Of a DNA stretch of 32,000 nt, positions 1,662-28,200 are shown piece after piece. The position numbers and the translations under genes were made by a program. Every line of letters begins with the position of its first letter. Within the stretch, counting starts at the first letter, position 1. The notes under the pieces are model-generated. The model was not told the DNA's origin, searched no databases, and worked only from the letters and a program-made list of their open reading frames with translations. Origin of the DNA: Microcoleus vaginatus GB1-A2 (GTDB lineage: Bacteria; Cyanobacteriota; Cyanobacteriia; Cyanobacteriales; Microcoleaceae); contig JAMPKS010000051.1 in NCBI GenBank assembly GCA_040004015.1, forward strand, positions 1 through 32,000, written 5' to 3'.

Positions 1662-2450
1662 TTAATCTCGCAATCCCCGATCGCGCAACAAAGCATCTGC
1701 CCAAGCTGCATCTGTTTCCGAGAGTGGCGGTACTGATGGCCTATTATAATCTATCTCCATATCGTAACCTGCAATATCATATATTCCATTGAACAGCATT
1801 TGCAAATCAACAACAGGCTCAGGATCTTCTGAACGCAAAGGCAACGGGAAAGAAGGAATTACATTCTGAATATTAAAAGCATATAAATCACCGCGAGGAC
1901 GGCGGTTGCCGCGACACACCAAAATGCGATAGTGACTCTCAATGTTATTGCCAACAATTGGCATGGGTTCCCCATTTCGCAGTAAATCAATTTCTATTAA
2001 ATGAGTGCGGGTACTTAGTACCTGTTGGCGTTTTTCTTCATACATCTGCCGTCCTTTACCAGAACGCTTATTAGTGGGTGAAACAATTTCAATCGCTGTT
2101 ATTACTTCTCTGGTTTCCACCTGTTTAATTTCTAAATAAGCTTCTTTGATAATCTCAGGAACAGGAATTGTCACAGTCACTGGTTGTGTTGGGGGTAATA
2201 AAACAGCCACATTCGGCATTGAAGGATTGCTGGCGTTTGCCAAACGCTGTACCGTTATATCTGGAATACCAACACTCACAGAACTTTCCCCGCTGGTTTC
2301 ATACATTCGCACTTCTACCGCGACTCGATATTTAGGCCGCAGTTGGGGAGATAAAAATCTTGCAATTTCACTAATCAGCAAGTTATGTATCCCAGGCCAA
2401 AAGTCGGGATGCTCTAAATACGGGTCCATTCCAGGAAAGGGAGATGGCAT
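1662..2450 (-). CDS. DUF4058 family protein
   Basis: The N-terminus MPSPFPGMDPYLEHPDFWPGIHNLLI is the hallmark start of the cyanobacterial DUF4058 family. AAGGAG lies 8 nt upstream of ATG 2450, so the track start at 2471 is probably too long. Confidence 0.85.
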   Translation of the reverse strand: MPSPFPGMDPYLEHPDFWPGIHNLLISEIARFLSPQLRPKYRVAVEVRMYETSGESSVSVGIPDITVQRLANASNPSMPNVAVLLPPTQPVTVTIPVPEIIKEAYLEIKQVETREVITAIEIVSPTNKRSGKGRQMYEEKRQQVLSTRTHLIEIDLLRNGEPMPIVGNNIESHYRILVCRGNRRPRGDLYAFNIQNVIPSFPLPLRSEDPEPVVDLQMLFNGIYDIAGYDMEIDYNRPSVPPLSETDAAWADALLRDRGLRD

Positions 2451-2579
2451 TGATGTGACTCCTTGACTCAACTCTATTTATAGTTTAGCAATGTTGTTTT
2501 GGGAAAATTAGGGGCGATCGCACTTCCGGTAAAATAGAATAATTCCTATTTGTGGAAGGGCGATCGCACTTTTTAACGC

Positions 2580-2822
2580 TTAAACTTCGATCGACAATTG
2601 CATCGGAATTGGAACGCTGTTTTCATCTAAGACAGACAGCGCATTTACGAAAACAATTGTATGCGGGACAGCGGGCATTAAGCGGCGCAGTGCATTTAGG
2701 TAAGATTCGGCATCGGGGCGGCGGCTGAAACGGGCGACTGTTAAGCGCTGACAGTTGGGGAGGTGGCGAATTATGCACCAAGGTTGAAGTCGAGCGCGAT
2801 ATGTCGATTGTTTTGGTATCAT
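2580..2822 (-). CDS. Small hypothetical protein (80 aa)
   Basis: It is an ORF with a GAAGGA Shine-Dalgarno-like element about 7 nt upstream of its ATG. The sequence pattern (LQPWCIIRHLPN..R..VARFSRRPDAE.YL..LRRL.P) looks like a conserved cyanobacterial small protein, from recollection. No function is assignable. Confidence 0.55.
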   Translation of the reverse strand: MIPKQSTYRARLQPWCIIRHLPNCQRLTVARFSRRPDAESYLNALRRLMPAVPHTIVFVNALSVLDENSVPIPMQLSIEV

Positions 2823-2922
2823 AGGAAAATCCTTCCCACTTTTGTGGGTGGTGAATGAAAGGCGATCGCTCTAGATTTCTCAGGTCAGGGGGCGATCGCT
2901 AATTTGATAATATTAATCTTAT

Positions 2923-2936
2923 GATACGTTCGTATC
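2923..2936. promoter_or_regulatory. Palindrome GATACG-TT-CGTATC, candidate operator
   Basis: Perfect 6-bp inverted arms lie 17 bp upstream of the first HTH gene start, inside an AT-rich stretch (aatttgataatattaatctt). Confidence 0.3.
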
Positions 2937-2952
2937 GGCTGTCAAGTGCAAG

Positions 2953-3165
2953 ATGGGTATAATTCGGTTGCGGGTTCGAGAACTAGCTGAGGAAAAGGGT
3001 TGGACGCTTAAAGAAGTTTCTGAGCGATCGGGCATTCCTTACAGTACCGTGAGAAGTTATGCCCATTCTCCCAAGCTGGCAACGGTAGATTACACAGCTT
3101 TAAACAAAATGGCTCGCGTGTTTGATATTGCGATCGAAGATTTAGTTGAGATTTTGGAAGAGTAG
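2953..3165 (+). CDS. Cro/C1-type (HTH_26-like) helix-turn-helix protein, copy 1 of 3
   Basis: 70 aa, MGIIRLRVRELAEEKGWTLKEVSERSGIPYSTVRSYAHSP... It has the typical XRE-family helix 2 / turn / helix 3 pattern. Confidence 0.85.
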   Translation: MGIIRLRVRELAEEKGWTLKEVSERSGIPYSTVRSYAHSPKLATVDYTALNKMARVFDIAIEDLVEILEE

Positions 3166-3185
3166 GCTGATTTTTTGCTGGGAAT

Positions 3186-3398
3186 ATGGGACGAATTAGG
3201 CTGCGAGTTAGAGAATTTGCTCAAGAGAAGGCTTGGAATCTGACAGAAGTATCCAACAGAACAGGTATTCCATATACCACGATCGTTACCTATGCCAATT
3301 CTCCAGGCATGGCTACCGTTGACTACACAGCTTTGGACAAGATTGCCCGTGCGTTCGATATTGCGATCGAAGATTTAGTTGAGATTTTGGAACAATAA
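3186..3398 (+). CDS. Cro/C1-type helix-turn-helix protein, copy 2 of 3
   Basis: 70-aa paralog, about 73 percent identical to copy 1 by manual alignment, and exactly 233 bp downstream of copy 1. Confidence 0.85.
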   Translation: MGRIRLRVREFAQEKAWNLTEVSNRTGIPYTTIVTYANSPGMATVDYTALDKIARAFDIAIEDLVEILEQ

Positions 3399-3418
3399 AC
3401 TGATTTGTCAGCGAGAAG

Positions 3419-3631
3419 ATGGGGCTAATACGGTTGCGAGTTCGAGAACTAGCTGAGGAAAAGGGTTGGACGCTGAAAGAAGTCTCTGACAGAACGGGAA
3501 TTCCCTACAGCACGGTTAAAAAATACGCCCAAGCTCCCAAAATGGCAACGGTGGACTATACGGCTTTGCAGAAACTTGCTGCTGTCTTCGATTTGATGAT
3601 CGAAGATTTGGTTGAGGTTTTGGAAAATTAA
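3419..3631 (+). CDS. Cro/C1-type helix-turn-helix protein, copy 3 of 3
   Basis: 70-aa paralog, about 79 percent identical to copy 1 by manual alignment, and exactly 233 bp downstream of copy 2. Confidence 0.85.
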   Translation: MGLIRLRVRELAEEKGWTLKEVSDRTGIPYSTVKKYAQAPKMATVDYTALQKLAAVFDLMIEDLVEVLEN

Positions 3632-3745
3632 GCTTAGGACTTACGCACGGGTGGTCAGAAACCGGGTTTTTTTGCATCAGACTTCGTTACAGCCCGCCGA
3701 TTCGGTAAAAAAACCGGTTTCGAGGAGTCGGAGTGCGTCGAAAAC
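3632..3745. mobile_element. MITE-like element, copy A
   Basis: Its termini ggacttacgcacgggtggtcagaaaccgggttttttt and aaaaaaaccggtttcgaggagtcggagtgcgtc are inverted. The core acttcgttacagcccgc is shared with copy B. It has no coding capacity. Confidence 0.6.
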
Positions 3746-3845
3746 AAACTGATTTGTCGCTCTTTGCAGTAAAAAAATATGAATATTGGAATTTTCCGGC
3801 TGTAAACTAAAGTCAGGAGTTTTTCAGTCTGCCGGAGTTATATCA

Positions 3846-4337
3846 ATGCCGATCGATCACCTGTCTGACGTGGAAGGGAACTTGGAAGATCTGAAAGAGC
3901 AATTAGTGGGCAAGGTAAAGGCTCTAAATTTAGCACCGCAAGAAGAAAAGATCCGAATTAAACAGCAAATCCGAGAGCTACGCAAGGAGATTCGGGAGCA
4001 GGAAGAGGAGTATTGGCAGGTTCTCGCTCAGCAAACGAAAACGGTGGAAATTCCCGAACATGAGGCTGAGATTATTGTTGCCGAGATTGTCGAAGAAGTT
4101 GGGCAAATTGAAGTGCAGGGACAGTATTCAGATGAAGTGCTTCAGATTTTGCAGGAGATTCGGGACAAGCTAAACCAACCGGGAGCAACAGCGGCCGCGA
4201 AACTTAAAGGCGTAATCTCAAGCATTCCGCCGTTTGTGGGAATTTCCTACGAGGCTGAATTGGATACAGAGAATTTTTTCCAGCGGCATTTCCCAACGTT
4301 TCGGAAGTGGGCTAAGGTATTAGCAAAAAAGTCCTAG
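3846..4337 (+). CDS. Coiled-coil protein (163 aa), probably the N-terminal module of the downstream STAND NTPase
   Basis: GGAG lies 8 nt upstream of ATG 3846, so the track start 3786 is unlikely. There is a charged heptad-like stretch EEKIRIKQQIRELRKEIREQEEEYW. The ORF ends GCA AAA AAG TCC TAG. Confidence 0.65.
   Translation: MPIDHLSDVEGNLEDLKEQLVGKVKALNLAPQEEKIRIKQQIRELRKEIREQEEEYWQVLAQQTKTVEIPEHEAEIIVAEIVEEVGQIEVQGQYSDEVLQILQEIRDKLNQPGATAAAKLKGVISSIPPFVGISYEAELDTENFFQRHFPTFRKWAKVLAKKS
4325..4331 (+). other. A_AAA_AAG heptamer in X_XXY_YYZ phase (candidate -1 frameshift or homopolymer indel site)
   Basis: Zero-frame codons are GCA(4323) AAA(4326) AAG(4329) TCC TAG. The -1 frame from 4331 (GTC CTA GAC...) is the frame of the NB-ARC ORF. 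Confidence 0.45.
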
Positions 4338-4441: not shown

Positions 4442-6874
4442 ATGCAGCAGTTGCACGGATTGTTGCAGGATGGAAGCCGCGTTGCCATTGCCGCTGCGTC
4501 GGGAATGGGCGGCATCGGCAAGACAGAATTGGTATGGCAGTATGCAACTTTTCACCGCGAACACAACACCTATCCAGCAGGGATTTGGTGGCTGTTTGTG
4601 CGGGACAACGATTTAGCGCCGCAGGTGTTGCAGAAAGCGCTGCGAATGGGAATTCAGCCGCCGGATACTCTCGACAATCTGGAGGAACGGTTGCAGTTTT
4701 GCTACGAAGAGTGGGCAAAACAAACCTCTGGCAATGCTCTGCTGGTATTGGATGATGTCAACGATTACCGCGCGGTGCAGCGGTTGCTGCCGAGAAATCC
4801 CCGCTTTAAGGTGTTGCTGACTGCGCGACAGCGACTGGAAGAAAAAACCGTGCAGCGATTGGATTTAAAGAAGCTCAGACCCTTGGATGCTTTCAAGTTA
4901 CTGTATGAAGTTAGTCAGGCAGAGACTCGCATTGTTCAGGAACAGATTGTTGCTGAACAATTGTGTGCTTGGTTGGAGTATTTGCCCTTGGGGATTGAAC
5001 TGGTGGCAACCTTTCTCAAGGTAGAGCCAGATGTGTCGGTAGCAGAGTTATTGGCACAGTTGCAGCAAAAGCTGTTGCAGGATGAGGTGCTGACTCCTGT
5101 AGCGGCGGCTTTTGAGTTAAGTTGGGTGCAGTTAAATGCTGCCGAACAGCAGTTGGCGGTATTGCTGAGTGTGTTTGCTTTGGCTCCCATGCCTTGGCAG
5201 TTGGTGGAGTCAGTGGTCGTAGTTTGTAGAGTAGAAGCCCCAAAGCAAAACTGGCTGAAGAAATTGTTTGTGGTGTGGGGAAAGGTGCAAGCACCTCAGC
5301 AGTGGTGTTTGCTACTGGACGATCGGGTTTTGAGCCAGAGTCGGCGGCGTTTGGTGGAGTTGAGTTTGCTGGGGCGCGTGGAGCAAAAGCAGTATCAACT
5401 TCATGCTTTGATTCGGGAGTTTTTTGCAGCCAAATTGCAGGGATACGCCGATGCTGAGAATTTGCGGAGAAGTTTTGCGGTGGTGCTGACAGCGGTGGCA
5501 AAGACGATTCCGCAGACTGTGACGCTGGAGGTGCAGCAACGGGTGAAGGAGGCGCTGCCCCATTTGGAGGTGGTGGCGGAACAATGGTCGCATTTGCTGG
5601 AAGATAGCACTGATGCTATGGGGTCTTTCACAGTCTTAGCGCGGGTTGCCCAGGGGCAGAGTTTGTGGGCAGAGGCGGAGAAATGGTATCAAGCTTGCCT
5701 GCAGATGACGGAGGAACGCTACGGAGCCGATCGTCCCGATACGGCAACGAGTTTGAACAATCTGGCAGAGCTATACCGTGCAATGGGACGCTACCCGGAA
5801 GCAGAACCCTTGTATGTGCGATCACTTTCTATCCGTGAGCAACAGCTCGGAGCCGATCGTCCCGATACGGCAATGAGTTTGAACAATCTGGCATTACTGT
5901 ACGGTGAAATGGGACGCTATCCGGAGGCAGAACCATTGTTAGTGCGATCGCTCTCGATCTCGGAGCAGCAGCTCGGAGCCGATCATCCCCATACGGCATT
6001 GGGTTTGAACAATCTGGCAGAGCTATACCGTGCAATGGGTCGCTACCCGGAGGCGGAGCCCTTGCTCGTGCGATCGCTCTCGATCCGTGAGCAACAACTC
6101 GGAGCCGATCATCCCAATACGGCAACGAGTTTGAACAATCTGGCAAATCTATACAATGCAATGGGACGCTACGCGGAGGCAGAACCCTTTTATGTGCGAT
6201 CGCTCTCTATCAACGAGCTGCTATTCGGAGCCGACGATCCTCATACGGCAACGAGTTTGAATAATCTGGCATTACTGTACGGTGAAATGGGAAGCTACCC
6301 GGAAGCGGAACCCTTATATGTGCGATCGCTCTCGATCAGGGAGCAACAGCTCGGAGCCGACCATCCCGATACGGCAGGCAGTTTGAACAATCTGGCAGAG
6401 CTATACCGTGCAATGGGACGTTACCAGGAGGCGGAACCCTTGTTAGTGCGATCGCTCTCTATCATGGAGCAGCAGCTCGGAGCCGACCATCCCCATACGG
6501 CAACGAGTTTGAACAGTCTGGCAGGGCTGTACTATGCAATGGGACCTTACCCGGAAGCCGAACCCTTGTTAGTGCGATCGCTTGCTATTAGGGAGCAGCA
6601 GCTCGGAGCCGACCATCCCGATACGGCAATAAGTTTAAACAATCTGGCAGAGCTATACTATGCAAGGGGTCGCTACCCGGAAGCGGAACCGCTTTACGTG
6701 AGAGCATTAAAAATCTTGTTTAACCGATTGGGAGAGAATCATCCCAACACCCAAAAAGTTTGGAGCAATTTCATTGATTGTCTCCAGCAGGCGATATCAA
6801 CGGGTCAAGACTCGCAGCTTTCCCAGCATCCAGCAACGCAAGCACTGCTTCAGCAACTTCGGGAGACGGAGTAG
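4442..6874 (+). CDS. NB-ARC (AP-ATPase) STAND NTPase with C-terminal TPR array
   Basis: Walker A GMGGIGKTE, Walker B LLVLDDVND, LLTAR (RNBS-B-like), YLPLGIEL (GLPL-like), then 8 full 42-aa TPR_10/12-type repeats. The reading frame is open from 4316 and encodes ...SELGSKNFVGRDEE upstream of ATG 4442 with no ATG/GTG/TTG, so the real N-terminus lies upstream. Confidence 0.9.
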   Translation: MQQLHGLLQDGSRVAIAAASGMGGIGKTELVWQYATFHREHNTYPAGIWWLFVRDNDLAPQVLQKALRMGIQPPDTLDNLEERLQFCYEEWAKQTSGNALLVLDDVNDYRAVQRLLPRNPRFKVLLTARQRLEEKTVQRLDLKKLRPLDAFKLLYEVSQAETRIVQEQIVAEQLCAWLEYLPLGIELVATFLKVEPDVSVAELLAQLQQKLLQDEVLTPVAAAFELSWVQLNAAEQQLAVLLSVFALAPMPWQLVESVVVVCRVEAPKQNWLKKLFVVWGKVQAPQQWCLLLDDRVLSQSRRRLVELSLLGRVEQKQYQLHALIREFFAAKLQGYADAENLRRSFAVVLTAVAKTIPQTVTLEVQQRVKEALPHLEVVAEQWSHLLEDSTDAMGSFTVLARVAQGQSLWAEAEKWYQACLQMTEERYGADRPDTATSLNNLAELYRAMGRYPEAEPLYVRSLSIREQQLGADRPDTAMSLNNLALLYGEMGRYPEAEPLLVRSLSISEQQLGADHPHTALGLNNLAELYRAMGRYPEAEPLLVRSLSIREQQLGADHPNTATSLNNLANLYNAMGRYAEAEPFYVRSLSINELLFGADDPHTATSLNNLALLYGEMGSYPEAEPLYVRSLSIREQQLGADHPDTAGSLNNLAELYRAMGRYQEAEPLLVRSLSIMEQQLGADHPHTATSLNSLAGLYYAMGPYPEAEPLLVRSLAIREQQLGADHPDTAISLNNLAELYYARGRYPEAEPLYVRALKILFNRLGENHPNTQKVWSNFIDCLQQAISTGQDSQLSQHPATQALLQQLRETE
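5741..6748 (+). repeat. Eight tandem 126-bp units encoding the TPR array
   Basis: Units start at 5741, 5867, 5993, 6119, 6245, 6371, 6497 and 6623. Long stretches are identical at DNA level, e.g. ggcagagctataccgtgcaatggg recurs. Confidence 0.9.
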
Positions 6875-12883: not shown

Positions 12884-12940
12884 CATCATCGAAAGCAATT
12901 TGGTCACAAGCCGCGCCGCCGGACTTATGCGCTGGTTCAA

Positions 12941-12968
12941 TCTCAAATCTCAAATCTCAAATCTCAAA
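12941..12968. repeat. Heptamer TCTCAAA x4
   Basis: Read directly in the pstC-pstA spacer, ending 5 nt before the pstA ATG. Confidence 0.9.
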
Positions 12969-12972
12969 TCGC

Positions 12973-13953
12973 ATGACTCAAGCACAAAATTCAAACAGTA
13001 TTCTGGATGCAGAAATTAACAATCCCCTGTCGCTAAGCAGAACTTTTTTCAGCCGGGGAATGACAGTTATCGCTTTCGCTCTGACAGCTCTCGCCCTGCT
13101 CCCTTTGTTTGCTATTTTATACAAAATTTTGGGGGAAGGACTCACACATTTGAGCTGGGAAGTGCTAGTGTCTCTACCAGCACCCGTCGGAGTAGAAGAC
13201 CAGCCCAACGGCTTTGCAAATGCGATTCTCGGCACGGCTTTAATGGTGGGAATTGCTACATTAATCAGCGTACCCATAGGCGTAATGACGGGAATATTTT
13301 TGTCGGAGTTTGGTAGAGAAAACAAAGCGATTACCAATACTATTCGCTTTATCACCGTCATTCTCAGCAGCGTCCCTTCGATCGTAGTTGGCGTCTTTTC
13401 CTACGCCTTAATCGTCGTTACCACCAAAGCATTTTCATCATTAGCAGGCGGTTTTGCCCTCGGCATCATCATGCTTCCAGTTGTTGCTCTGACAACAGAA
13501 CAAGCATTAAAATTAGTGCCTACTTCTTACCGCCTCGCTTCTGCTGGTTTGGGAGGCGGACGCTTTCAAACTATGTTTCGCATTATCATACCCTCAGCAC
13601 TTCCAACTATTACCACGGGTATTTTACTCGCTGCTTCCCGGGCCGCCGGCGAAACCGCGCCGCTGATTGTAACGGCGTTGTCGAGTCAATTTTGGCCTCC
13701 TTTAGTTGATAAAGTGGGCGAGATAATGCAGTCTCCTATAGGTGCAGAAACTATCTCAAAACTCAAAGAAATTCCCGAGACACTGCTGACTCCGACTCCT
13801 TCTATGTCAGTATTAATATATAGCTACGCCAGCTCTCCTTATAAAGAGCAGAACGAATTGGCGTGGACTGCTGCCTCTGTGCTTTTGGGCATGGTTTTGA
13901 TTGCTAGCGTCGCATCCCGTACAGTAACTCGGAAACGCTTGCAAAATCGATAA
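12973..13953 (+). CDS. pstA: Phosphate ABC transporter permease PstA
   Basis: It is a multi-pass permease with an EAA-like loop (ASAGLGGGRFQTMFRIIIP) at the expected operon position. Confidence 0.88.
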   Translation: MTQAQNSNSILDAEINNPLSLSRTFFSRGMTVIAFALTALALLPLFAILYKILGEGLTHLSWEVLVSLPAPVGVEDQPNGFANAILGTALMVGIATLISVPIGVMTGIFLSEFGRENKAITNTIRFITVILSSVPSIVVGVFSYALIVVTTKAFSSLAGGFALGIIMLPVVALTTEQALKLVPTSYRLASAGLGGGRFQTMFRIIIPSALPTITTGILLAASRAAGETAPLIVTALSSQFWPPLVDKVGEIMQSPIGAETISKLKEIPETLLTPTPSMSVLIYSYASSPYKEQNELAWTAASVLLGMVLIASVASRTVTRKRLQNR

Positions 13954-23342: not shown

Positions 23343-24029
23343 ATGCTGAGACTTATTACCGACTTTGATGGCCCGATCATGGACGTGTCCGAGCGCTACT
23401 ACCGAGTTTACCAGCAGTGTCTGGCCGAGACTCAACGTGAGGACCAACCAGTGCGCGAACTTCCCAAAGCCGAGTTTTGGGACATGAAGCGCGCGCGGGT
23501 TCCCGAAACCGAAATCGCCATCCTCTCAGGATTAGACGCAGCCCAAGCCCAGGATTTTGCTCAGAAACGCCGTCAAACCGTTCACACCCTCCCTTACATG
23601 ATTTACGATCGACCAGTGCCCGGCGCTCTGGAAACGCTCGAAAAGGTGCAGCGCGCTGGAGTAGACTTAGCGGTTCTGACGATGCGCCGCGTCAGGGAAC
23701 TAGACGAAGCCTTCAACCGCTGTAATTTAGGGCAATTTTTCCCTGAAAACCGCTGCTATTGCCTCCCCAACGATTACGTCAAAACCGGGGATGTCAAAGA
23801 TAAGCCGCTGCTGATGGCGAGAGCTCTCGCCGAACTGCCGCCGGCTTCTGACATTTGGATGGTGGGGGATACGGAGGCGGATATTGTAGCCGCAAAAACC
23901 CACGGTGTCAAGGTAATTGGTGTTTTGTGCGGAATTCGCGATCGCACCCAACTAGAAATCCACGAACCGGATTTAATTGCTAACAATTTGAGTGAAGCAG
24001 TTGAGATTATTTTAGGTTCCCAAAATTAG
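23343..24029 (+). CDS. HAD-superfamily hydrolase (phosphoglycolate phosphatase-like)
   Basis: Motif I ITDFDGPI and motif IV VGDTEADIVAA. Confidence 0.85.
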   Translation: MLRLITDFDGPIMDVSERYYRVYQQCLAETQREDQPVRELPKAEFWDMKRARVPETEIAILSGLDAAQAQDFAQKRRQTVHTLPYMIYDRPVPGALETLEKVQRAGVDLAVLTMRRVRELDEAFNRCNLGQFFPENRCYCLPNDYVKTGDVKDKPLLMARALAELPPASDIWMVGDTEADIVAAKTHGVKVIGVLCGIRDRTQLEIHEPDLIANNLSEAVEIILGSQN

Positions 24030-24068
24030 TCATTAGTCATTAGTCATTAGTCATTAGTTATGAGTTAT
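24027..24068. repeat. Heptamer array TAGTCAT x4 plus 2 degenerate units
   Basis: Read directly. The first TAG is the stop codon of the HAD gene. Confidence 0.9.
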
Positions 24069-24126
24069 TAATTGTTAGCTGATGTTATTGGTCCGAGGTC
24101 TTGATTTCACAGTTATTAGTTGTTGG

Positions 24127-24196
24127 CTGCTAACTGCTGACTGCTGACTAATGACTAATGACGGCTGACTAATAACTGCTGACTAATGACTGCTGA
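24127..24196. repeat. Heptamer array CTGCTGA / CTAATGA, 10 units
   Basis: Read directly. CTAATGA is the reverse complement of a circular permutation of TAGTCAT. The array abuts the stop codon (24197-24199) of the minus-strand gene. Confidence 0.9.
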
Positions 24197-24808
24197 CTAT
24201 CGCAGAAAACCGCTGACCAGCCACAGAATTAAAAACGTAAACACAGCGATAAATTTCTCTGTTGTTATAAATGCCGGACTGACAAAAGATCCCACAAGGC
24301 CTCCCAGTAGCAAGCCTATAACCAATCCAGCCACAGTCAGCAGCACGGCCCGACCAAATTTTTGTTCCTTGCGATTAACAAAATAAAGACAAGAGCCGAC
24401 CCCAAGAGCCAGAGTCAACTGTAGTAAAGCATCATTAGCCGCCGGATAAATACTCAGTCCGCCTAACCCCACATACACCCCAGCCGGCCACAAAATGTCC
24501 GATCGACTAGGAGTATCGATTAGCCGCTTCAACCAAGCTGGGCTGCCACTAGGAGGAGACGGACTAAAGCTTGCCGGTGGGGGAGTCAGCCGCTCGGGAA
24601 AGCGGATGCGTTCGGGTACTTTAATTTTACCTTCCTGTCGCTGTCGCAGGCGATCCATGAGGATCGCATCGTAAGCTGCTTCGATCGATTCCAAACGTTT
24701 CTTGTCACCGCTGTACTGCTCGCCTAGGCGTGTGCGGGCCTCTTGCACTTCATCAAAGGAAGCATCTTCATCGACTTCAAGCAGTTGATAGGGAGTTGGC
24801 TCACTCAT
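24197..24808 (-). CDS. J-like domain membrane protein (CPP1/CDF1-like, DUF3353-type)
   Basis: MSEPTPYQLLEVDEDASFDEVQEARTRL resembles a DnaJ J-domain start but lacks an obvious HPD. There are C-terminal hydrophobic helices. Start 24808 is chosen because the upstream 79 codons of the track ORF look non-coding. Confidence 0.7.
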   Translation of the reverse strand: MSEPTPYQLLEVDEDASFDEVQEARTRLGEQYSGDKKRLESIEAAYDAILMDRLRQRQEGKIKVPERIRFPERLTPPPASFSPSPPSGSPAWLKRLIDTPSRSDILWPAGVYVGLGGLSIYPAANDALLQLTLALGVGSCLYFVNRKEQKFGRAVLLTVAGLVIGLLLGGLVGSFVSPAFITTEKFIAVFTFLILWLVSGFLR

Positions 24809-26343: not shown

Positions 26344-28200
26344 TTGGGAAAAAAAATCGTGAAACCAGTTCCAGACAAGCAAATAACAGCCCATTTGAAC
26401 ACCAAACAGCAAAAAAAGAACCCTACAGGCGCTCGGACTCGATCGCGCCTTTTGTCCGATCGCTCACTGCTGGTGGGACTGGGTTGCCTTGCCAGTCTGG
26501 GACTGCTCAGCAAAGGCATAGTGTGGGCCCAAGCCGAAATTCCGCCAGCAGAACAAGCCGTCCCCGGCGCAGCAGACCTCCAGCCATTATTTGAAGCTCC
26601 TCTCCCGCCCCCGGAACCCGAATACAGCCAAGTGGAGCCAGAACCGTACCCTGAACCGCAGGCAGAAGTTCCACCGCCCGAGCCTGTCTATGCCGAACCG
26701 CCCAGTGAGCCGGAGTACGCCAGCGAACCACCTCCCACGGAATATTATCTGCCGGAGCCCGCGCTGATTCCCCTGCCAGAAGAGACGGCCCAGGAGCCGC
26801 CTTTTGAAGCGCCAGTTAACCCAGCCCACGCTGAAATCGACCAAACAGACTACAGCGTTGGCGCTACCAGCGACTACCAAGAGTACGAAGCGCCAACAAC
26901 AATAGAGTTTGCAGAACGATCGACCGGCTGCGAAGGAGTTGGCGGTTTGTGCGCGCCTCCTCCTGTTTCCGAGCCGGTGACGGCAGATGCAGGAGAGCCC
27001 TACTACAGCCCGGAAACTCCGATCGCAGACGACCGCTATATTGCAGCCCCTCCTCCTCGCAATCTGCCAGAAAGCCTTCCGGGCGATGTTGAGGGAACTG
27101 TTGCCGGAAATAGTAGCGGGAATGTTGTCAGTAAAGTCGGTCAAGCCGTTCAACAAATAGGCAGCCAGGTTTGGGGGGGATCAAACCCGCCGGAATCTGC
27201 TTACGCACCCCCGGGCTACTCGGCAAACCCCGGCTACTCGGCAAACCCCGGCTACTCGGCAAACCCCGGCTACTCGGCAAACCCCGGCTACTCCGCAGAC
27301 GCTGGATACTCGGCAAACCCAGGATACTCGGCAGACGCTGGATACTCCGCAGACGCTGGATACTCCGCAGACGCTGGATATTATGCCGAATCTGCATCTT
27401 ACGGCGGCGGTGCTCCAGCGCCCAGCATGGGACTCGGGCCGGTTCAAGTCGGTGCGATTAGTGTCAGCAGCGGCAGCAATACAGGTTTTGCCTTCTACAA
27501 TCTCACGCCGCGTCCTGCAGGCCTGCCCGGAAATGGCAACACCAGCCTGCTGTTTCCGCTATCTATTGCTTCGGCAATTACTTCGCCGTTTGGGTGGCGG
27601 ACTCATCCGGTTATGGGATACGGCAGGTTTCACACCGGAACTGACTTGGGGGCCCCGCTGGGAACGCCGGTACTGGCCGCCTATGCGGGCCAAGTGGCGA
27701 TCGCCGATTGGTTGGGCGGCTATGGTTTGACGGTGGTTCTCAACCACAACAAAAATTCTCAGGAAACTCTCTACGCCCACCTTTCGGAACTGTTTGTGAA
27801 ACCGGGAGAGTGGGTGAAACAGGGAGAGACTATCGGCCGCGTCGGCAGTACGGGAATGTCTACAGGGCCTCACCTCCACTTCGAGGTTCGGCAAATGACT
27901 GACCAGGGTTGGGTGGCGATCGACCCGGGTTCTCAGCTAGAATTCGCTCTGGCAAAAATGATCGGCACTTTGGAAACCGCCAAAGTACCCCAAATGCCAA
28001 AAATGGTGGAAATACAAACCGCTAACTCACTCAAGGATTTGGAAAACGATCTGCCCCAGCTTCCACCTCTGCCGCTGGGAATGGACATCGAAGTTCACAA
28101 CCTCCAGCCGCCATTCCCGGAACTGTTAAAGGCTGACACTTCGGTGGCCAAAGACAAGCAAGCCCCCAAACCAAAAACTCAGAAGCAAGCTAGCAGGTAA
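26344..28200 (+). CDS. M23-family (LytM-type) metallopeptidase with Pro/Glu-rich and hexapeptide-repeat linker
   Basis: FHTGTDLGAPLGTPV, GSTGMSTGPHLHFEV and an N-terminal hydrophobic segment. The start is TTG 26344 or GTG 26359, since there is no early ATG. Confidence 0.88.
   Translation: MGKKIVKPVPDKQITAHLNTKQQKKNPTGARTRSRLLSDRSLLVGLGCLASLGLLSKGIVWAQAEIPPAEQAVPGAADLQPLFEAPLPPPEPEYSQVEPEPYPEPQAEVPPPEPVYAEPPSEPEYASEPPPTEYYLPEPALIPLPEETAQEPPFEAPVNPAHAEIDQTDYSVGATSDYQEYEAPTTIEFAERSTGCEGVGGLCAPPPVSEPVTADAGEPYYSPETPIADDRYIAAPPPRNLPESLPGDVEGTVAGNSSGNVVSKVGQAVQQIGSQVWGGSNPPESAYAPPGYSANPGYSANPGYSANPGYSANPGYSADAGYSANPGYSADAGYSADAGYSADAGYYAESASYGGGAPAPSMGLGPVQVGAISVSSGSNTGFAFYNLTPRPAGLPGNGNTSLLFPLSIASAITSPFGWRTHPVMGYGRFHTGTDLGAPLGTPVLAAYAGQVAIADWLGGYGLTVVLNHNKNSQETLYAHLSELFVKPGEWVKQGETIGRVGSTGMSTGPHLHFEVRQMTDQGWVAIDPGSQLEFALAKMIGTLETAKVPQMPKMVEIQTANSLKDLENDLPQLPPLPLGMDIEVHNLQPPFPELLKADTSVAKDKQAPKPKTQKQASR
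27211..27390 (+). repeat. Ten tandem 18-bp units encoding PGYSAN / PGYSAD / AGYSAD hexapeptides
   Basis: Units start every 18 bp from 27211, and three consecutive units (27229-27282) are identical. Confidence 0.95.

Follow-up and report, generated by a model that had tools for sequence, protein, structure and literature searches.

A tandem array of three XRE-type helix-turn-helix genes facing a small open reading frame in Microcoleus vaginatus

An autoregulatory XRE repressor with a palindromic operator is a known arrangement, and the closest described systems are the controller proteins of restriction-modification (R-M) systems, the regulatory switches of phages and Staphylococcus aureus pathogenicity islands (SaPI), type II antitoxins and the XRE repressors of anti-phage systems. 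We compared with these a locus of Microcoleus vaginatus GB1-A2, contained in a stretch of 32,000 nucleotides (contig JAMPKS010000051.1, positions 1 to 32,000 of the forward strand; hereafter the window), in which three tandem genes encoding small helix-turn-helix (HTH) proteins (copies 1 to 3) face a divergent small open reading frame (small ORF). As judged from their sequences, the three copies represent three ancient subtypes of the cyanobacterial HTH_26/XRE family, each under purifying selection, and are not recent duplicates. What is new is a variable-length, cyclically ordered array of several specificities, placed in an undescribed cyanobacterial module. The best overall explanation, which we consider likely, is that the copies are functional repressors of three specificities in a divergent module, in which the first gene of the array (the head) encodes a repressor of both the small ORF and itself.

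The controller (C) proteins of R-M systems (C.AhdI, C.BclI; Pfam HTH_3) are XRE-fold dimers of about 70–80 residues that bind a palindrome directly ahead of their own gene, a description that would also apply to the array. They autoregulate, time a neighbouring gene and form operator-specificity classes, and C.AhdI and C.BclI are structural matches of the proteins described here. As in C-box systems, a palindrome lies 15 bp upstream of the ATG of copy 1, although it is single, not double. Unlike R-M loci, the array has no methyltransferase or recognised restriction enzyme according to Pfam and PADLOC, its neighbours being the small ORF, a DUF4058 gene and an ORF163/NB-ARC-TPR cassette. It also differs in its tandem organisation with several specificities and in its predicted controlled gene, which is small and divergent, with the operator in the spacer of the divergent promoter.

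Phage and SaPI switches and SinR (Cro/CI, Stl, SinR-SinI) share with the array the XRE domain, the recognition helix H3 and divergent promoters with a common operator, and their heteroimmune classes are likewise set by helix/operator pairs. In contrast to SinR and the phage repressors, the array proteins are bare 70-residue domains with no C-terminal oligomerisation or sensor domain, and so depart from the SinR type. Moreover, the array is chromosomal and orthologous across species, and searches of phage records, of viral contigs and of plasmid collections found no relatives. BLAST searches of phages and plasmids gave no close relatives, but only XRE proteins with 31–43% identity from non-cyanobacterial records, and a scan of IMG/VR found no relatives of the HTH proteins. 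An origin from a mobile element, or a role as a phage or plasmid immunity repressor, was thus rejected, since these searches were negative and the locus is chromosomal and orthologous, between the genes of an ABC transporter and UbiD.

The XRE antitoxins of type II toxin-antitoxin systems (HipB, HigA, XRE-DUF397) are also small, autoregulatory and encoded by multicopy modules in variable regions, and in XRE-DUF397 systems one partner is described as occurring in tandem copies (PMC7159879). Here, however, it is the HTH gene that is multiplied and not the putative toxin, the layout is divergent, and no co-transcribed partner of a toxin family was recognised. Finally, anti-phage XRE repressors such as CapH of the cyclic oligonucleotide-based antiphage signalling system (CBASS) are small XRE proteins encoded ahead of immunity or cell-death genes, which recalls the NB-ARC/TPR, CHAT and TRADD-N neighbours of the array. 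The array differs from CapH in having no partner protease, an optional and variable cargo, and a repressor that is an array of several specificities.

The HTH array and its subtypes

The three genes are 213 bp each (70 codons plus a stop) and follow one another with an exact period of 233 bp, as the first-pass annotation had noted. Tandem Repeats Finder (TRF) recovered a period of 233 with 2.9 copies over the array. All three proteins score above the curated gathering score of Pfam HTH_26 (PF13443, Cro/C1-type HTH; 22 bits), with profile positions 2–60 of 63 covered (Table 1). No terminator-like site was seen between the units in a scan of the window.

An AlphaFold2 model, built on an alignment of 39 sequences, reached a predicted local distance difference test score (pLDDT) of 96, with helices at residues 8–15, 19–26, 30–38, 47–56 and 61–64 and strands at 3–6 and 65–69. 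This is an XRE, or lambda-repressor-like, fold of five helices, in which helices 2 and 3 form the HTH and helix 3 is the recognition helix. Foldseek superposed the model, with probability 1.0 and a template-modelling score of about 0.7–0.8, on the DNA-binding domains of SinR bound to DNA (3zkc), SaPI2 Stl, DdrO and C.AhdI, those of Stl and SinR being the best matches; further matches were C.BclI, CylR2, HipB and the N-terminal domain of CapH (7t5u). A profile search of Protein Data Bank sequences also aligned PYSTVRSYA to the recognition helix of SinR and DdrO. In the model, residues 30–38 are therefore the recognition helix H3, and residues 31–42 comprise that helix and the following loop. 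The proteins extend no further than residue 70, just past the DNA-binding domain, and lack a C-terminal multimerisation domain.

Twenty-four residues vary among the three copies, and eight of them fall within residues 31–42 (8 of the 12 positions there versus 16 of the 58 elsewhere; Fisher P = 0.013). Both the concentration of differences at these residues and their expected place at the XRE recognition helix, proposed from the sequence of the window, thus agree with the statistics and with the superposed model. Conservation of the C-terminal DIAIEDLVEILE in all copies, proposed at the same time, proved incorrect: it is found in copies 1 and 2 only, and copy 3 has DLMIEDLVEVLE. Residues 1–10 and 61–69 are nearly invariant between subtypes.

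Homologs from many genera, 70–94% identical, were aligned and split into subtypes according to the recognition helix. Subtype A, represented by copy 1, is characterised by STVRSYAHSPKL; subtype B, by TTI[IVA]TYA[NS]SPGM, with a division into B1 (WNLT; copy 2) and B2 (WTLR); and subtype C, represented by copy 3, by STVK[KN]YAQAPK[ML]. More HTH subtypes are present in other genera. Mutual information between residue and subtype, computed on 144 intact copies, peaked at positions 34, 35 and 38, followed by 20, 24 and 51. At the positions that discriminate between subtypes, entropy within a subtype was near zero.

Subtypes A, B1 and C recur across genera, and each copy of the window has near-identical orthologs in other genera. 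The closest relatives are from Microcoleus and Tychonema, and the sequence is cyanobacterial, as it carries highly iterated palindrome 1 (HIP1) sites, GCGATCGC. Synonymous divergence (dS) between the copies of the window is 0.7–1.6 and is saturated in the middle segment. Within subtypes, the ratio of nonsynonymous to synonymous divergence (dN/dS) is 0.05–0.12, which indicates purifying selection on the copies, and those that do not head an array are as strongly constrained as heads. A deeper coalescence of the HTH units than of their flanks was considered and rejected, as dS within subtypes (0.2–0.4) is similar to that of the ABC transporter (0.17) and UbiD (0.32) genes.

Nucleotide identity is 0.728 between copies 1 and 2, 0.789 between copies 1 and 3, and 0.718 between copies 2 and 3, and its patchy distribution, described in the first-pass annotation, was found again. 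A 35-nt block has exactly two occurrences, at 2974 (copy 1) and 3440 (copy 3), and so has a 36-nt block, at 3124 (copy 1) and 3357 (copy 2). When mismatches were shuffled, identical runs of such length were rare (P = 0.0001–0.0002 for copies 1 and 2; P of about 0.003 for copies 1 and 3), and the longest run shared by copies 2 and 3 was only 12 nt (P = 0.6). Because the runs are longer than expected from shuffled mismatches, the mosaic pattern of the array is real.

The blocks had been attributed to gene conversion or recombination between units, an explanation that is not supported in that form. Paralog identity within one array equals that between species in all five segments compared (0.935 versus 0.932 for the 3' block shared by A and B), and recent gene conversion was rejected as their source. 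In every Microcoleus array, subtype A has a C-like 5' third and a B-like 3' third, and a Geitlerinemataceae-like lineage carries a subtype A with a C-like 3' end instead. Since the mosaic is fixed at the level of the subtype, it reflects old chimerism and not recent conversion in this genome.

Operator palindromes, head genes and array composition

To describe the region between the small ORF and the array, 57 distinct intergenic regions were aligned. They consist of a conserved left part, with a hairpin and an inverted repeat of HIP1 sites, and a right part of about 45 bp that varies. Discrete classes can be told apart in the right part by their palindromes, one for each class; after the palindrome comes an invariant TTGTCAAG, which reads on the minus strand as a perfect –35 hexamer, TTGACA. 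In the 75 modules surveyed, TTGACA is followed by a spacer of 17–18 bp (18 bp in the window) filled by the palindrome, then by a –10-like hexamer. The loop of the HIP1 inverted repeat was inverted in three loci.

The palindrome class corresponded to the subtype of the head gene in 75 of 75 modules and in 10 of 10 further ones, that is, in 85 of 85 with no mismatch. Among the 75, heads of subtype A (20 modules) were preceded by ATGATACG-TT-CGTATC or, in other genera, by GCCGCG-AA-CGCGGC and the like; heads of subtype B1 (10 modules), by ACTCGA-ATAC-TCGAGT; heads of subtype B2 (17 modules), by TTACGA-NTAC-TCGTAA; and heads of subtype C (28 modules), by AGCTATG-AG-CATAGCT. The A-type class was found only ahead of A-type head genes. 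Four candidate operators are ATGATACGTTCGTATC (window 2921–2936), ACTCGAATACTCGAGT, TTACGAGTAGTCGTAA and AGCTATGAGCATAGCT. The central 4 bp of the B2 palindrome were found in both orientations (CTAC and GTAG).

The palindromes were confined to array heads in 672 kb of sampled loci; apparent extra matches away from heads all corresponded to heads at a contig edge or to HIP1 artefacts. The operator type is kept across genera while the flanks diverge (loci L002–L005, L050–L062 and L088–L089). In Oscillatoria sp. FACHB-1406, three different pairings of head and palindrome are spread over at least three modules; several specificities can therefore share one genome. The protein identical to copy 3 is encoded by the head gene in four loci and by a non-head gene in four others.

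These results bear on the earlier proposal of a diversified DNA specificity. It is supported by the discriminating positions 34, 35 and 38 and by the head/palindrome correspondence, but the diversification is ancient and held by purifying selection, and is not ongoing. The view that the copies are more than simply redundant is supported, on comparative evidence, by the subtype-specific palindromes ahead of heads.

The order UPF0367, ABC transporter, DUF4058, small ORF, HTH units, optional cargo and UbiD is common to about 50 species of Microcoleus and Tychonema. At this syntenic locus the array contains from one to six units: among 75 Microcoleus-type modules, 18 have one unit, 25 two, 22 three, 6 four, 3 five and 1 six. 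The 233-bp period is kept in nearly all arrays. Of the transitions between neighbouring units, 89 keep to the cyclic order A>B>C>A and 9 skip one unit, and C>B was never observed. Any subtype can head the array (C in 33 of the 75 modules, B2 in 17, A in 13 and B1 in 12). No pseudogene was found among the 75 heads, and 13 were found among the 104 non-head copies. In non-head A copies, codon 30 (Tyr, at the start of the recognition helix) is a stop in four loci and Asp in two. Array composition does not track the similarity of the ABC transporter, loci only 0.7% apart carrying C-A-B1, B2-C-A-C and C-A-B2-C. Arrays usually end with a spacer and a truncated unit start, or with a miniature inverted-repeat transposable element (MITE). 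The MITE-like element of the window was also found after the array in at least eight other loci.

In the simplest model, these changes would arise by unequal recombination that stays in register with the 233-bp unit, inside a higher-order A-B-C repeat. A second component may be allelic exchange of a cassette made of operator and head, between the conserved left intergenic region and units of the same subtype.

Table 1. Features of the array and its surroundings, in window positions.
Feature	Position	Strand	Remarks
DUF4058 gene	1662..2471	-	adjoins the small ORF; hypervariable between species (58–97% amino-acid identity), sometimes duplicated
Small ORF	2580..2822	-	80 aa; predicted beta-beta-alpha-beta core; unannotated; predicted target of the head repressor
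Leader hairpin CCCAC-N4-GTGGG	2835..2848	-	just upstream of the AAGGA Shine-Dalgarno sequence of the small ORF
Inverted repeat of two HIP1 (GCGATCGC) sites	2860..2900	.	loop of about 20 nt; boundary between conserved left and variable right parts
–10-like hexamer TAAGAT	2916..2921	-	promoter toward the small ORF; promoter scan
Subtype-A operator palindrome ATGATACG-TT-CGTATC	2921..2938 (core 2923–2936)	.	candidate operator; sole match in the 32-kb window
–35 hexamer TTGACA	2940..2945	-	perfect (TGTCAA on the plus strand); kept in 75/75 modules surveyed
HTH copy 1, subtype A, head gene	2953..3165	+	recognition helix STVRSYAHS; predicted to repress itself and the small ORF; HTH_26 35.1 bits
Inter-unit spacer 1	3166..3185	+	20 bp; GGGAA Shine-Dalgarno-like element; no palindrome, no terminator
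HTH copy 2, subtype B1	3186..3398	+	WNLT..., recognition helix TTIVTYANS; HTH_26 35.4 bits
Inter-unit spacer 2	3399..3418	+	20 bp; TTGTCAG, a vestige of TTGTCAAG, the head-proximal motif
HTH copy 3, subtype C	3419..3631	+	recognition helix STVKKYAQA; HTH_26 38.4 bits
MITE-like insertion	3634..3742	.	distal end of the array; inner inverted repeat GAAACCGGGTTTTTT / AAAAAAACCGGTTTC; terminal-inverted-repeat-like AGGACTTACGCAC...
Terminal inter-unit spacer remnant AACAAACTGATTTGTC	3743..3758	+	direct repeat with 3394–3409; pushed away from copy 3 by the MITE
ORF163	3846..4337	+	163 aa; coiled-coil-like; no family match; first gene of the cargo cassette
NB-ARC/TPR STAND NTPase gene	4442..6874	+	no N-terminal effector domain; second cargo gene

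Proposed regulation and competing explanations

We propose that copies 1 to 3 are probably co-transcribed as the plus-strand arm of a divergent regulatory module. The head protein, of subtype A, would most likely bind the palindrome at 2921–2938 as a dimer, a prediction drawn from the sequence of the region, and would then occlude the small-ORF promoter and repress the small ORF. Because the operator is so close to the ATG of copy 1, autoregulation of the array is predicted as well. The recognition helices of copies 2 and 3 are matched to ACTCGA-N4-TCGAGT and AGCTATG-N2-CATAGCT, respectively. As these palindromes are absent from the window, both proteins presumably act in trans, on B- or C-headed modules or on other genomic sites.

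In about 65 of 79 genome loci the small ORF is conserved ahead of the HTH array; with a dN/dS of 0.27, it is under purifying selection. It had no match in Pfam, NCBIfam or PADLOC, and its AlphaFold2 model (pLDDT 67) gave no fold match with Foldseek (E > 1). A profile search placed it in a large cyanobacterial family of 518 representatives at 50% identity, none of them annotated, with the consensus M[ST]Y.D.L.PW[CV]I.R.LP..QR..VARFRRR.DAE.YL..LRRL.P. Relatives either face XRE genes or lie in an operon after a 100-aa ORF, to which they are sometimes fused (two cases). In one locus, a palindrome beside TTGACA separates a distant homolog from the two tandem XRE genes that it faces. RNA folding of the small-ORF leader gave a z-score of –3.55, and the stem of the leader hairpin shows at least four independent compensatory variants across loci; a search of this leader against Rfam found no family. 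In five loci of other genera, an equivalent leader, promoter and operator precede the gene of another uncharacterised protein, which is about 100 aa long and has in common with the small ORF only its first seven residues, MIPTxQT.

Several observations weigh against the proposed regulation. A search of the 32-kb window gave no B1, B2 or C operator, and none was found within ±4 kb of any module except at heads. The association between head and operator, which are only about 20 bp apart, could partly reflect linkage, the pair being inherited as one cassette. Moreover, the –10-like hexamers are weak (TTTAAT, TTGAAT, TAAGAT), and no promoter was identified for the HTH array itself. Finally, the small ORF is frameshifted in four loci in which the arrays are intact.

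Among the other explanations, the array may, perhaps as an additional role, gate the transcription of the hypervariable conflict island beside it, that is, of the co-directional downstream cargo and possibly of DUF4058, in the manner of the XRE or WYL repressors encoded ahead of defence operons (CapH, BrxR). The slot to the right of the Microcoleus array holds ORF163 and NB-ARC/TPR in 15 loci, CHAT-TPR in 9, and CyanoTRADDas_TM and TRADD-N-NB-ARC in 10; CHAT begins, in the orientation of the array, only about 84 bp past the stop of the last HTH gene; in nearly all Microcoleus modules, among them non-syntenic ones such as L095 and L097, DUF4058 comes after the small ORF and in its orientation; and CapH was among the structural matches. 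However, at least 14 arrays adjoin UbiD with no cargo, CyanoTRADDas_TM is convergent with the array and not co-directional, and the modules of other genera have unrelated neighbours. No operator copies were found ahead of cargo genes, and inspection of the loci listed showed no apparent association between array subtype and cargo type. We hold this role to be possible but not required, and somewhat improbable.

An addiction module resembling toxin-antitoxin systems, with a harmful small ORF and HTH proteins as its antagonists, at the level of transcription, of the protein or of both, of which extra copies would buffer loss or neutralise the toxins of other modules, seems unlikely. The proteins are indeed similar to the antitoxins HipB and HigA, several modules occur per genome in variable islands, and the head is never inactivated, the small ORF sometimes being so. 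On the other hand, the genes are divergent and do not form an operon, the small ORF has no toxin-family match in the three databases searched, some of its relatives occur with no HTH partner at all (locus L090), and other genera carry the MIPTxQT-start protein in its place.

A further idea concerns the array as a whole and is about as unlikely. The copies may form an orthogonal set of repressors conferring 'cross-immunity' over all operator classes of the modules, and thereby silence small-protein cassettes together with the linked death or immunity islands. Each genome would then keep A, B and C, however these are split between modules, and incoming recombined alleles would be silenced too. 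The indications, suggestive only, are the purifying selection on non-head copies, a union of subtypes that was A, B and C in about 8 of 9 sampled two-module genomes, according to our reading of the loci, and the recurrent Y30stop and Y30D changes in non-head A copies; the last two also hint at interaction in trans between modules. Such a set would resemble, at the level of the cell, phage superimmunity or the incompatibility groups of R-M C proteins, and its role would possibly be allorecognition, or the policing of conflict islands in multicellular cyanobacteria.

Slightly less probable still is that the paralogs act in combination through a common dimer interface (N- and C-terminal strands, LVEILE/LVEVLE), their heterodimers reading hybrid sites or titrating the head homodimer. 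The near-invariant protein ends and the probable co-expression of the HTH genes from one transcript would fit this, but all operators found are symmetric, homotypic palindromes, no hybrid combinations of half-sites occur at heads, and single-gene modules are common (18 of 75). Lastly, that the copies are redundant recent tandem duplicates, retained for dosage and drifting, with patchy identity from ongoing local gene conversion, is suggested by the exact period, the significantly long identical blocks and the copy number that differs between species, but is very improbable in view of the high or saturated dS between copies, the near-identical orthologs of each copy in other genera, the within-subtype dN/dS of about 0.1 even in non-head copies, the equal paralog identity within arrays and between species in every segment, and the C-like 3' end of subtype A in the Geitlerinemataceae-like lineage.

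Genomic setting and significance

The repression proposed for the head would take place at the edge of a variable region. The ABC-transporter and UbiD proteins are 94–100% identical across the Microcoleus and Tychonema species that share the locus. By eye, neither DUF4058 alleles nor the phylogeny of the flanks corresponded to head type in the loci compared. The cassette formed by ORF163 and NB-ARC/TPR is present in some species only and alternates with CHAT-TPR or TRADD-N-NB-ARC cargo; the 108-bp gap between its two genes is conserved. In 9 loci the slot holds DUF6887 instead. At 5722–6690, the sequence that codes for the TPR array of the NB-ARC protein is made of tandem DNA repeats (126/378 bp, 7.7 copies, 82% identity). 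TRF also reported repeats at 27210–27369, 24025–24199 and 12939–12981, including a period of 18/54 bp with about 9 copies and heptamer runs.

The cargo genes belong to conflict systems described in PMC8195603 and PMC7159879; both papers, when searched for HTH, XRE and related terms, gave no reference to such XRE arrays. Literature searches that covered HTH_26, DUF4058, XRE tandems of cyanobacteria and the conflict systems with TRADD-N likewise yielded no description of the array.

An unannotated module of two families, a small protein and an HTH array, is widespread in filamentous cyanobacteria, and in Microcoleus it borders a hypervariable island with STAND, CHAT and TRADD-N 'apoptosis/immunity' genes. 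If the helix/operator pairs hold, the family would supply natural repressor–operator pairs, at least five in number, whose repressors have only 70 residues and which may be mutually orthogonal; the specificity code would reside in few residues (18–20, 24 and 31–38). Such pairs would be useful for studying the insulation of paralogous regulators and as parts for cyanobacterial synthetic biology. The cyclic array of variable length at one orthologous locus is a clear natural case of higher-order tandem gene-array dynamics in bacteria.

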